NCBI GenBank assembly: GCA_963666205.1
Contig: OY762654.1
Location: 800,001-864,000, forward strand
Direction: 5' to 3'
Origin: Synergistales bacterium
GTDB taxonomy: Bacteria; Synergistota; Synergistia; Synergistales; JAFGMB01
Length of the DNA stretch: 64,000 nt
The first letter of the stretch is position 1, and each line of letters starts with the position of its first letter. The notes below the pieces were generated by a model. That model worked only from the letters and a program-made list of their open reading frames with translations. It was not told the DNA's origin and searched no databases. This document shows, one piece after another, positions 748-3,857 of the stretch. Both the position numbers and the translations under genes were made by a program.

Positions 748-2403
748 TTATTGTTCCCTCGTTCCTGAAGCCAAAGGAAGAGAAATGGAGACTCTAGCTC
801 CCCCATTTCTGTTACGTCCAATACTCAAAAAACCTCCCAGGGTTCGGGCCTGTTCTCTTAGACTGAAGAGGCCGAAACTGTGATTTTTCTCTGAATATTC
901 ATGATCAGATAATCTGCGGATCCCCTTTCCATTATCCGTGACAGATATACGCAGATCACCTTTGGTAAAAGACGCGGAAACATCAGCTACTGTAGCATCT
1001 GCATGTTTGATAACGTTTGTCAGCAATTCACGAACTGCCCTGAAAAGAAAGGATTTTATATCATCAGACATTTCTGAAGGGATATTCTTAAATTGACAGG
1101 AAATCTTGATGTCAGACTGTCTCCCCAGTTTTTCGACCAGCCATTCTACTGCAGGAGAGAAGCCCAGTTCATAGAGAACAGGAGGGCTCAATTCAAAGGT
1201 AATGTTCCTGACACAGGATATGGCATTTTCAAGATTACGGCAAGCTTCATCCAGATGGGAACATGTTTCGGGATCACTGAGACCCTTCCGGGCCATTTCT
1301 AGTCTTAATTTCGAGAGAAGGAGATCCTGACCTATATTGTCATGGAGCTGATGGGCTAATGATCTTTTGGTCTTTTCCTCCAGATAAGTCATTCTATATG
1401 ACAGCCCCTGGAGCTGGCGCTGATATTTGTGGAATTTTACCTCCTGTTCCTTTCTTTCTGAAATATCTCGAGATATAAAGAGCATCAATAGCTCACCTCT
1501 AAGATGGAAAACATGAGCACTGATCTCCACATTAATACTTGACCCATCTTTTCTCACGTGGACTGCCTCAAAAATCATCCTTCTCTTTTTTCTGAGCATT
1601 CTCATGATCTTTTCCATATTTGCAGAACCGGCTATTCCATCAATATCCTGCAACTCCATAGATAAAAGTTCTTTTCTGGAATAACCCAGGGAACGGCATG
1701 CAGAGTCGTTAACTTCCACAAAACGACCGGGGAGACCATCATCACGAATTTTCAGCAGGAATATCTTGTCCGTAGCATTCTGGAAAAGATAACGGTACTT
1801 ATTCTCACTTTCCTTTAACTCTCTCTGGATGAGTTTCAGGGAAGAGATATCCCTCGCAATTGTTGCTGTAGCAATAACCTGACCCTCCGGGTCAAACATG
1901 GGAAACTTGCGACTCAGATAAAATTTTTCCACTCCGTCGGGATAAACAATATTTCGTTCTCTTTCAATAAAATTCCCCTTCGGGAGGGTCTGGGCAAGAG
2001 TTTCATCCAATGAATATTGCCTTATAGTCTCCATATCAAGATGGGGGCAATAGATCTCTTCATGCGTTTTTCCGACGACATCTGTAATATCATGTTTCCA
2101 GACAGCCTTTACAAAAGCCCTGTTAGCTGTTATCAGCTTAAGGTCAAGATCAAACATTGTTACTATATCTTCTGTTTCTTCGACTATGGTAGAAAGATAA
2201 CTTCTATCAAGGAGCTCATCATAAAACCGAAGTATCTGACCCCGAAAAGAGAAGGAATTATCATAAGAGACAGTACTGGAAAGAGGAAGAAGCAATTCAA
2301 TAACCTCTCCTCGAAAATCGGAGGTATCCTTCAAATTGAAGAGGTTATCAAAATAAGTGAGAAAATTGGACGATCCCTTCTCTGACCCCATTTCATCTAC
2401 CAT
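748..2403 (-). CDS. Cytoplasmic PAS-PAS sensor histidine kinase (HisKA_3/NarX type)
   Basis: Two PAS/PAC-like repeats, H-box LHDNIGQDL, N-box ELLTNVIKHA, DNGKG, FGLFS. GGGAGG RBS before ATG 2403. Confidence 0.9.
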   Translation of the reverse strand: MVDEMGSEKGSSNFLTYFDNLFNLKDTSDFRGEVIELLLPLSSTVSYDNSFSFRGQILRFYDELLDRSYLSTIVEETEDIVTMFDLDLKLITANRAFVKAVWKHDITDVVGKTHEEIYCPHLDMETIRQYSLDETLAQTLPKGNFIERERNIVYPDGVEKFYLSRKFPMFDPEGQVIATATIARDISSLKLIQRELKESENKYRYLFQNATDKIFLLKIRDDGLPGRFVEVNDSACRSLGYSRKELLSMELQDIDGIAGSANMEKIMRMLRKKRRMIFEAVHVRKDGSSINVEISAHVFHLRGELLMLFISRDISERKEQEVKFHKYQRQLQGLSYRMTYLEEKTKRSLAHQLHDNIGQDLLLSKLRLEMARKGLSDPETCSHLDEACRNLENAISCVRNITFELSPPVLYELGFSPAVEWLVEKLGRQSDIKISCQFKNIPSEMSDDIKSFLFRAVRELLTNVIKHADATVADVSASFTKGDLRISVTDNGKGIRRLSDHEYSEKNHSFGLFSLREQARTLGGFLSIGRNRNGGARVSISLPLASGTREQ

Positions 2404-2428
2404 TGGATACCTCCCTTGCTCCTTAGGC

Positions 2429-2480
2429 AACCTCAAAATGAAAAGACAAGGTTAAAACCTTGTCTTTTCATTTTGAGGTT
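2429..2480. terminator. Perfect 25-bp-arm inverted repeat after msrA
   Basis: aacctcaaaatgaaaagacaaggtt-aa-aaccttgtcttttcattttgaggtt, immediately after the msrA stop. Confidence 0.7.
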
Positions 2481-2481
2481 T

Positions 2482-3252
2482 CTATTCAGAAGCAGATACC
2501 ATCTTTCTGAGTTTATCCTGAGCCGCTGGAGATAGACCCAGGAGGTCTATCTCAGTTTCAAGCTGTAAAAGGTCACCCATCCCTGAAACATATCCATTCA
2601 GTCTTGCTGCAGCCGTTGAATCAGTAAGTTCTCTATCACTTAAGAAAATTTTTGAATAGTCATCCATAAATTCCCTGAACCTCTTCAAGCGGTATTTCTG
2701 GTGATATTCTTCAGCCAGATAAAATTCACGGAAAGGGATCACTTCTGTTAAAATGACTATTCCACGTTTTTTCTCTTCTTCTGATATACTTTCGATGATC
2801 TTTTGTTTCTGAGATTCATTATGATAGAAAAGAATAGAAATATACTGACGGGATGAAGTCTTTTGTGCAGGATCATGACTTGACCAGAAAACTTCAAGTA
2901 ATTCAGAAAAGGAAATCTTTTCGGGGTCGAAATCTATCTGAATACTTTCAGTATGGTCACCCAGATCATGGTAGGTGGGATCCTTTAAAGTACCTCCAGA
3001 ATAACCCACCCGTGTACGTATAACTCCTGGAATTATCCCGAACCGGGAATCAGGTCCCCAGAATCAACCTAAGGCAAATGTTGCAGTTTCAACCTTTAAT
3101 GGCAGTTCCCCATCTATAAGGGGTTTCTTTGCAAGAACACTCTCATCAGTTCTCATAGCTGTTGCCTCCCTTGAGCAGATAAACAAGAATGAAAATATCA
3201 GAAGGAAGAAGATAACTTTCCATGCTTTCACAGGCATGGAATAAGGATACAT
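2482..3252 (-). CDS. msrA: Selenocysteine-containing peptide-methionine (S)-S-oxide reductase with N-terminal signal/anchor (256 aa)
   Basis: ORFs 3064..3252 and 2482..3009 are in one frame, joined by TGA at 3064-3066. Readthrough gives ATFALG-U-FWGPDSRFGIIPGVIRTRVGYSGG, the GCFW active-site motif with U for C. Downstream motifs DHTE, QYIS, FYLAEEYHQKY. AAGGAGG RBS. Confidence 0.92.
3025..3063 (-). promoter_or_regulatory. Bacterial SECIS-like stem-loop
   Basis: mRNA after UGA: lower stem UUCUGGGG/UUCCAGGA, upper stem UCCCG/CGGGA, apical loop GUU starting with G 20 nt after the UGA. Confidence 0.78.
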
Positions 3253-3467
3253 GATTATTCCTCCTTACACAGGGCCTGAATAGTGTTATCAGGCTATATT
3301 TTTATCCTGCTAGCTAATGATACAGGCACAGACATTTTACCCCATAAGTTCCACCATCCACAAGCAGTATGTAAATAAGTAAACTTAACCCCTAAAGACG
3401 ACAGTTTTAAATTATAATCATGTATGTTCAAACAAATTATTTTTCAGATAAAACCGGAGGATATGAT

Positions 3468-3857
3468 ATGCCGATCGATGAATCTTCTATTCGAGGACAA
3501 ATATTGAAATTAAAGGATTTTCGAAGATGGTCGAACAAGAATGAACTGACTTTTTTGCCCCAGCTTATGGTTGAGGAGGAAATCATAAAGGGCCTGACCT
3601 CCGTCCTGTACAATGAAAGAAAGTGGCTTATGGTCTTAACTGATAGAAAGGTTATATTTCTTTACAGAAAGATGATCGATGGTATTCAGGAAAGCATTCC
3701 CCTGTCTGACATAGTTTCTGTTTCCTGTGAAACCGGCCTGATGTTTGCACGGTTGATTTTACAGACAGATAAAAAAGAAATGAACCTGGACTCTATCCTT
3801 AAAAAGGATGCCCTTGTAATCAAAGAACTCCTTTCAGATATGCTTATAGAAAAATGA
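3468..3857 (+). CDS. Bacterial PH-domain (YokE-like) protein
   Basis: LMVLTDRKVIFL...SIPLSDIVSVSCETGLMF pattern typical of bPH domains. GGAGG RBS before ATG 3468. Confidence 0.75.
   Translation: MPIDESSIRGQILKLKDFRRWSNKNELTFLPQLMVEEEIIKGLTSVLYNERKWLMVLTDRKVIFLYRKMIDGIQESIPLSDIVSVSCETGLMFARLILQTDKKEMNLDSILKKDALVIKELLSDMLIEK

Follow-up and report, generated by a model that had tools for sequence, protein, structure and literature searches.

An in-frame UGA at the catalytic position of a Synergistales methionine sulfoxide reductase A gene, very probably read as selenocysteine

Introduction

When a stop codon stands where an enzyme should have its catalytic residue, is the gene broken, or is the codon read as an amino acid? 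The question is raised by a methionine sulfoxide reductase A (MsrA) gene on the minus strand, at positions 2482–3252 of a 64,000-nt stretch of DNA from a Synergistales bacterium (assembly GCA_963666205.1, contig OY762654.1, positions 800,001 to 864,000 of the forward strand). This whole stretch is called the window in what follows, and positions are those of the window. Under translation table 11 the gene splits into a 62-aa open reading frame (ORF) at 3064–3252 (−) and a 175-aa, GTG-started ORF at 2482–3009 (−). An earlier note on this DNA, made from its letters, took the two ORFs for one frame and proposed a hidden selenoprotein.

With high confidence we take its product to be a functional 1-Cys selenoprotein methionine-S-sulfoxide reductase A, belonging to the type described from Clostridium oremlandii (CoMsrA). 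The evidence compared is the frame with its motif and family, the selenocysteine (Sec) machinery of the genome, the conservation among orthologs of the UGA and of a hairpin behind it, and the presence of TGA in independent DNA and RNA-library contigs. Citations by PubMed Central (PMC) number refer to excerpts of the papers concerned.

The reading frame and its enzyme family

From the ATG at 3252–3250 the minus strand holds a single frame of 256 sense codons followed by TAG (2482–2484), in which the TGA at 3066–3064 is the sole internal stop; the two ORFs are indeed one frame. Reading the TGA as Sec (U) gives a single recoded codon, U63, in the context ...ETATFALG-U-FWGPDSRFG. This is the exact position of the nucleophilic Cys in the GCFWG motif of MsrA, so that residues 62–66 read G-U-F-W-G and the earlier placement of the TGA (3064–3066) at the Cys of GCFW is correct.

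The read-through protein matches Pfam PMSR (PF01625; 8.5e-41, 140.2 bits against a cut-off of 23.7), which marks residues 56–192 as the catalytic domain (2677–3087, −), and NCBIfam TIGR00401 msrA (123.7 bits against 108.1). Residues 204–241 (2530–2643, −) match PF20939, ‘Selenoprotein methionine sulfoxide reductase A, helical domain’ (4.2e-8, 33.3 bits against 23.7). Best matches in the Protein Data Bank (PDB) are chains 4u66, 7c13 and 4lwj–4lwm, with E about 1.5e-56 over residues 53–249, the helical domain included; 4LWJ and 4U66 are CoMsrA (PMC4333827, PMC4479559).

As excerpted, the same two papers describe CoMsrA as a native selenoprotein of 209 residues with Sec16 in GCFWG and no other Cys (‘1-Cys type’). 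Its Sec form is 20-fold more active than the Cys version, its reductant is glutaredoxin, not thioredoxin, and it depends on a helical domain at the C-terminus, absent from other MsrA structures (PMC4333827, PMC4479559).

The window protein is like CoMsrA (Clostridium/Alkaliphilus oremlandii OhILAs; PDB 4LWJ, 4U66, 4W8C and others) in having GUFWG with the catalytic Sec, a 1-Cys design, a catalytic and a C-terminal helical domain, and the active-site Tyr, Glu, Gln-Tyr and His, with the E value above spanning 197 residues. The CoMsrA active-site residues Tyr47, Glu55, Gln89, Tyr90, His137 and Tyr140 (PMC4333827) map, at an offset of 47, onto Y94, E102, Q136, Y137, H184 and Y187; the first five are invariant in an alignment of 13 sequences and Y187 is not. 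The only Cys, C26, lies inside an N-terminal hydrophobic segment and none occurs downstream, so the protein has no resolving Cys, a 1-Cys-type feature. CoMsrA differs in having its Sec at residue 16 without an N-terminal extension, whereas the window protein is longer by 47 residues, which comprise the hydrophobic segment and a PxID linker that is conserved. An Omp85/BamA homolog, and so probably an outer membrane, is present in the host here, whereas C. oremlandii is described, in excerpt, as gram-positive. Activity on methionine-S-sulfoxide (Met-S-SO), the approximately 20-fold advantage of Sec and the dependence on glutaredoxin are properties of CoMsrA, to which the window protein is likened by sequence alone.

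The Sec-MsrA family is already known, and the window gene is a new member of it. Bacterial MsrA with the motif GUFWG/H stands among the experimentally verified selenoproteins in a 2026 review (PMC13188914, in excerpt), and Pfam domain PF20939 is named after the family. The earlier note had itself stated that Sec-MsrAs exist in anaerobes; ‘hidden’ in the sense of a new selenoprotein class does not apply.

The UGA in orthologs and in independent contigs

One alternative is that the gene is a pseudogene, in which a TGY codon for the catalytic Cys has mutated to TGA and the part downstream is decaying or an inactive fragment. What gene callers deliver would fit this: in the protein collection the gene appears, for this genome, only as a 175-aa C-terminal fragment (P0002) without the active site, and a close relative is likewise represented by a C-terminal fragment (P0003). 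Orthologs bear on the matter directly. The read-through protein was searched against 41 related genomes, the window's own included, and 21 had a match. Among 14 same-clade loci in related genomes 13 have TGA exactly at G-TGA-F-W, at 41–88% protein identity to the window. In the fourteenth (L035, on contig C79 of genome G021, near the contig end) the catalytic codon is TGG (Trp), and an in-frame TAG follows 144 codons on; this locus looks like a former Sec-MsrA in decay, and to that extent favors the pseudogene. Eight remoter matches in the related genomes have no in-frame stop; all six that were fetched carry GCFW, and five of the six are MsrB-MsrA fusions.

A collection with one genome per species was scanned with the 13-sequence alignment, and 590 relatives were confirmed; counts from this collection use the best 80 of the 590. 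These 80 span Chloroflexota, several Deltaproteobacteria/Desulfobacterota lineages, Nitrospirae, Synergistetes, Planctomycetota, Clostridia and others, and their catalytic codon is TGA in 75 and Cys in 5. Of the 94 clade loci examined, TGA occupies the site in 88, Cys in 5 and TGG in 1, whose frame is broken. An alignment of homologs at this site, which the earlier note had suggested, thus returns UGA, or Cys in a minority.

Past the UGA the frame stays open for 186–211 codons in the orthologs. It is also well conserved: 43 columns of the 13-sequence alignment are invariant. A TGA kept across phyla ahead of an intact and conserved frame argues against a pseudogene. So does the gene's standing as the only MsrA: no other PMSR-domain gene is found in the genome, a single 2.95-Mb contig scored 100% complete, and if the UGA ended translation the organism would have no MsrA.

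A different doubt is whether the TGA is real, since an assembly or sequencing error could hide a true TGC or TGT, the possibility that the earlier note itself set against its reading. Positions 3064–3066 are covered by contigs (the check rests on these and not on raw-read pile-ups) of two DNA and two metatranscriptome runs from four studies, and no other letter occurs there; the nearby synonymous positions 3067, 3055 and 3022 do vary in the contigs of one run. The same-genus genome G001 is identical to the window over the 48 nt from the TGA onward, and TGA stands at this codon in 87 other loci. Nothing that speaks for an error came to light, and we regard one as scarcely conceivable.

Several orthologous loci have unusual arrangements. 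Two Sec-MsrA paralogs on contig CAVZNY010000007.1 (L067 and L091) have bodies that are 98.9% identical at the nucleotide level and leaders that differ: one is of RR/lipobox type, the other is unrelated upstream sequence with no obvious start 15–45 codons before the UGA. At L081 an MsrB domain is fused in frame upstream of Sec-MsrA. L090 and L117 have an upstream domain of about 50 residues that by eye resembles a heavy-metal-associated fold. At L065 and L093 a second MsrA, a Cys form of CFWC type, lies just downstream of the Sec-MsrA gene.

Selenocysteine machinery and the meaning of TGA

Can this organism insert Sec? Following the earlier suggestion, selA, selB, selC and selD were searched for, and each exceeds its curated cut-off in this genome. 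The tRNA-Sec gene (selC) lies elsewhere in the genome, scores 77.1 bits against a gathering score of 47 and has the anticodon TCA; ARAGORN, run on the 64-kb window, found no tRNA there. Genes selA (564.7 bits) and selB (364 bits) are adjacent, and selD (333.7 bits) has one in-frame TGA of its own. A full Sec machinery is a further point against a pseudogene.

Two other genes of the genome, both outside the window, show the same kind of codon. In selD (G000:C1:2905894-2906826, locus L018) the in-frame TGA stands in ...KTSG-U-AAKIGP... and is followed at nt 14–30 by a 7-bp hairpin with a GGC loop; SelD is itself a predicted selenoprotein in this organism. A glutaredoxin-family gene of 82 codons (G000:C1:2711604-2711783, locus L127) has an in-frame TGA that opens a U-P-W-C site, with a hairpin (loop AGGA) about 16–33 nt past the UGA. 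It is a candidate cytoplasmic selenoprotein glutaredoxin and a possible reductant of Sec-MsrA. Both hairpins have G-rich loops (GGC, AGGA) at a spacing from the UGA similar to that of the msrA hairpin described below. The presence of a candidate selenoprotein glutaredoxin is a further likeness to CoMsrA, for which a pairing of Sec-glutaredoxin with Sec-MsrA is cited in PMC4333827 and PMC4479559.

With this machinery at hand, a third explanation can be weighed: a genome-wide or local change of code, by which TGA is read as Trp or Gly and not as Sec. Of 13 database homologs that were fetched, seven carry a genuine GCFWG and four (P0007, P0010, P0013, P0015) are deposited with GWFWG, which is what a Trp codon would give. 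Yet TGA is an ordinary stop here, ending 14 of the 40 ORFs of at least 250 aa in the window, and a dedicated tRNA-Sec, selA and selB are present. By the chemistry of MsrA, moreover, Trp at the nucleophile position would abolish catalysis (PMC4479559, in excerpt). A change of code has next to no probability in our view. The GWFWG metagenome entries are evidently Sec UGA codons translated as Trp under an alternative code, a systematic misannotation.

Annotation suffers in another way as well. Standard gene finders truncate the Sec-MsrA gene, and the earlier expectation that pipelines would split it holds for generic gene callers, as the fragment P0002 attests.

The hairpin directly behind the UGA

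Is there a signal by which this UGA could be told from a stop? Counted from the UGA, 48 nt form a tiered stem-loop (3021–3066, −) of −14.8 kcal/mol, alike in the minimum free energy and the centroid structure. Its upper part, the candidate Sec insertion sequence (SECIS), is a hairpin of five pairs, UCCCG-GUU-CGGGA, at nt 19–31 from the U of the UGA (3036–3048, −). The loop is G24-U25-U26, and its first base, G, lies 20 nt past the A of the UGA. Lower tiers pair nt 1–7 with 40–46 and nt 9–12 with 35–38. The earlier note had described a two-tier stem-loop with a G-first loop 20 nt downstream. Fold and position stand; the lower tier does not carry over to the family. It was rejected as a family feature, since it needs a Pro codon absent from many orthologs and is not conserved in the alignment; only the upper hairpin is conserved.

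In the bSECISearch model a bacterial SECIS is a stem-loop directly 3′ of the UGA with an apical-loop G at about 16–37 nt, a description that the hairpin at nt 19–31 with its loop G24-U25-U26 fits. The Escherichia coli fdhF element has loop bases G23/U24, and there the upper stem-loop, in a minimal form placed 11 nt from the UGA, is sufficient. The window shares with fdhF an in-CDS (coding sequence) hairpin directly 3′ of the UGA, an apical loop of G then U about 20 nt on, and the conservation of the upper stem-loop only. Unlike in fdhF, no bulged U was identified here, the loop is GGUU(C) or AGUU(C), and the stem has five pairs.

The stronger evidence comes from the family, compared as 76 distinct 48-nt sequences of Sec-form loci that align without gaps. 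Their consensus in the hairpin region is GAC UCC CGG UUC GGG AGU C. In the stem, the codons for Ser/Ala, Arg/Gln and Gly (codons 7, 8 and 10 past the UGA) are fixed at the third position, with C (72 of 76), G (74 of 76) and G (69 of 76) respectively; at four-fold sites close by but outside the stem (Gly at nt 10–12, Pro at 13–15, Gly at 40–42) all four bases are used freely. In 69 of the 76 the stability of the local hairpin exceeds that of 95% or more of the synonymous recodings (median −10.9 versus −4.6 kcal/mol). The three core C-G pairs (CCC/GGG) of the family helix are kept in 91–99% of sequences, and changes on both sides are seen at three helix pairs (UA to GC, CG to AU and GC to AU). 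Double-change cells number 22 against 7.7 in shuffles, with none of 500 shuffles reaching 22, for helix columns (16–23 with 27–34) that were chosen by hand before pairs were counted, a choice that favors the proposed structure. The core CCCRGUUYGGG occurs in 60 of the 76 distinct TGA forms and in none of the five Cys-form orthologs, three of which fold to only −2.5 to −3.6 kcal/mol.

Other results weigh against a functional hairpin and selenoenzyme. In the window alone the hairpin is not beyond chance: z is −0.45 with 59 of 200 dinucleotide shuffles folding as well, z is −0.24 for an 81-nt piece, and 11.5% of synonymous recodings match its local stability. With five upper-stem pairs it is among the weakest in the family. 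Across the family, counting in fixed columns pairs only 76% of cells, the outer four helix pairs fail in 17–37 of the 76 sequences (partly through one-base register shifts), and a −1 slide control gives a similar covariation score. RNAalifold on the 76 sequences of 48 nt missed the helix; the pairing that it returned instead was weak (−1.89 kcal/mol) and showed no covariation. The aligned sequences are related, not independent, and shuffle counts therefore overstate significance. Contigs from RNA libraries that cover the gene, finally, are no proof of transcription.

On balance, the comparison supports the UGA-proximal hairpin as a family-conserved SECIS that is weak in this genome. Family conservation and covariation are our grounds for accepting it despite its non-significance in the window alone. 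For a pseudogene that non-significance would be expected, and the fragment in the databases and the decayed relative L035 agree; but a constraint on synonymous sites that forms a hairpin exactly after the UGA does not, and together with the conserved TGA, the Sec machinery and the sole-MsrA status it leaves the pseudogene very improbable. The preferred reading is thus a functional selenoenzyme, an earlier suggestion to which the Sec machinery, UGA conservation, conserved hairpin, independent contigs and sole-MsrA status all lend support.

Two candidate starts and an N-terminal extension

Where does the protein begin, and where would it act? A Shine-Dalgarno sequence (SD), AAGGAGG (3260–3266, −), lies 7 nt ahead of the ATG at 3252, and the long form from this ATG begins MYPYSMPVKAWK-VIFFLLIFSFLFIC-SREATA. 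Its hydrophobic segment VIFFLLIFSFLFIC (residues 13–26; 3175–3216, −) has a Kyte-Doolittle 12-mer mean of 3.18, is preceded by two Lys and is followed by ATA/M; there is no lipobox. The segment resembles a signal peptide or membrane anchor. A lipoprotein reading of the window protein was rejected, L-F-I-C not fitting a lipobox.

Such segments recur upstream of the catalytic domain. Of 76 loci, 55 have a hydrophobic 12-mer in frame and none has one in either other frame (4 of the 80 loci, with N runs or short flanks, were left out). A hydrophobic segment occurs in 62 of 87 Sec-form loci; a lipobox-like motif follows it in 22, and a loose RR motif precedes it in 9. Upstream of codon −33, substitutions favor third positions in the close pairs L063/L072 (6, 3 and 12 by codon position) and L100/L101 (11, 7 and 22); other close pairs, the window and G001 included (5, 6 and 9), show little or no such bias. 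To judge by these sequence patterns, the N-terminal extension is real coding sequence in the family. Long forms also have a conserved motif, (I)PPID-x3-P, 10–19 residues ahead of the Sec, seen in the window protein at residues 44–52 (KPLIDGELP) and absent from CoMsrA.

Inside the long form lies a candidate second start. A second SD, GGGAGG (3170–3165), is followed after an 8-nt spacer by the ATG at 3156–3154 (Met33; whole element 3154–3170, −), from which a leaderless 224-aa form would be made. An ATG 27–40 codons before the UGA is found in 55 of the 80 loci. Of these 55, 40 also carry a hydrophobic extension, and in 30 of the 40 a GGAG/GAGG core is seen 5–17 nt upstream of the ATG, against 15.3 expected from synonymous resampling and a background rate of 12.4%. 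As it occurs in each of the three codon registers, the motif is a signal at the nucleotide level and not a peptide motif. It is possibly an initiation site for a leaderless cytosolic isoform, and might equally be the relic of an ancestral start. A metatranscriptome contig (run X5), from an RNA library, covers 2418–3313 and so spans both starts, and proves neither. A scan of the minus strand at 2300–3600 found no promoter-like site for sigma-70, and promoters therefore give no help in choosing between the starts at 3252 and 3156.

The enzyme could be real and purely cytoplasmic, starting only at ATG 3156, with the hydrophobic codons upstream lying outside the working protein. In favor of this are the strength of the internal SD and its spacing, the likeness of the product to the 209-aa CoMsrA, the conservation of SD and ATG at the nucleotide level, and the existence of short forms without the extension (for example L027, L029, L031 and L032). 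The genome also encodes the cytoplasmic UPWC Sec-glutaredoxin, and glutaredoxin is the known reductant class (PMC4479559, in excerpt). Against it, ATG 3252 has the even better SD, the hydrophobic segment is confined to the proper frame in the orthologs and runs into lipobox-like motifs in a number of them, two close pairs show the third-position bias, and the RNA-library contig reaches 61 nt past ATG 3252, a weak point. We think a cytoplasmic-only enzyme rather unlikely.

A broader proposal would use both starts. In many anaerobic phyla a single Sec-MsrA gene may give an exported or anchored long form, whose leader by lineage would be a Sec-type signal, a lipobox or an RR signal, together with a leaderless cytosolic form from an internal SD-ATG about 30–36 codons before the UGA. 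We offer this tentatively, as a possibility that we would not yet call probable. In this organism an exported form would be periplasmic, given the Omp85/BamA homolog.

Some features of the host touch on export. Its sole MsrB gene, outside the window (G000:C1:904717-905061; locus L124 1489–2064, −), is a 191-aa ORF behind the SD GAGAGGTGA, and its product starts with a signal-like segment, MTRKYKPTVFFAIFLQIFLSASFF...LSA/EP. Both methionine sulfoxide reductases of the organism thus appear, from their N-termini, to be exported or anchored. A DsbD_TM/CcdA homolog lies about 24 kb before the window.

Known extracytoplasmic enzymes offer a comparison. The MsrA or MsrAB proteins of Neisseria, Haemophilus and streptococci are Cys enzymes with a signal peptide or lipid anchor, fed with electrons by CcdA/DsbD-type proteins (PMC9404787, PMC6372556, PMC7034828, in excerpt). 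An N-terminal export or anchor signal is common to them and to the long form here, and the host here also has the signal-bearing MsrB and the DsbD_TM/CcdA homolog. Theirs, however, are Cys-based, usually MsrA-MsrB fusions with or without thioredoxin and with resolving Cys or thioredoxin partners, whereas the enzyme here is a single-domain 1-Cys selenoenzyme. Eukaryotic MsrA reaches several cellular locations from one gene by an alternative first exon or alternative initiation (PMC1431549, in excerpt). The likeness would be one msrA gene yielding a targeted and a cytosolic isoform, if the starts at 3252 and 3156 are both used; the difference is that here the means would be SD-driven internal initiation in a bacterium, to which sequence conservation points. 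A limited literature search found no exported bacterial Sec-MsrA and no dual initiation of a bacterial msrA.

Surroundings of the gene

No partner gene adjoins the Sec-MsrA gene. Right behind its stop codon, and before the next ORF on the minus strand (748–2436, 562 aa), lies a 20-bp hairpin (2431–2478, −), whose arms form an inverted repeat that is perfect over 20 bp. A hairpin scan gave it a terminator-like score on the plus strand only. It is probably the transcript end, and the X5 contig, covering 2418–3313, gives only a weak hint on this point. An Rfam search of 2400–3400 at E≤1 returned 13 sub-threshold matches, none of them on the SECIS; 12 fall on the post-stop hairpin, including miRNA-precursor types, and one (MIR828) on 2736–2837. 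All were rejected as generic hairpin matches.

Proposed mechanism

Translation would begin at ATG 3252, and possibly also at ATG 3156. On reaching the UGA at 3066–3064, the ribosome would meet the hairpin at 3048–3036, whose G-first loop about 20 nt past the UGA would recruit SelB with Sec-tRNA(Sec), and Sec would be inserted in place of termination. In the finished enzyme Sec63 of G-U-F-W-G would attack the Met-S-SO sulfoxide, so that Met is released and a selenenic acid remains. An external thiol or selenol reductant is proposed for recycling because the protein has no resolving Cys; the likeliest is a glutaredoxin, and the genome has the UPWC one. From Sec insertion and SelB binding to enzyme activity, reductant, start used and location of the protein, this scheme is what we infer from the observations above.

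Implications

The enzyme type is already characterized, and as a family assignment the result is mainly confirmatory. For the organism, the correct reading gives back a complete repair of Met-S-SO and adds an entry to the selenoproteome beside SelD and the UPWC glutaredoxin. For the family, the mostly present export or anchor signals and the conserved internal start, in a clade as large as the 590 confirmed relatives, are possibly weightier than the family call. If the dual-isoform proposal is true, the long form would be an exported 1-Cys selenoenzyme with a periplasmic reductant, and a single MsrA gene and a single MsrB gene, together with a cytoplasmic Sec-glutaredoxin, would give both compartments methionine-sulfoxide repair.

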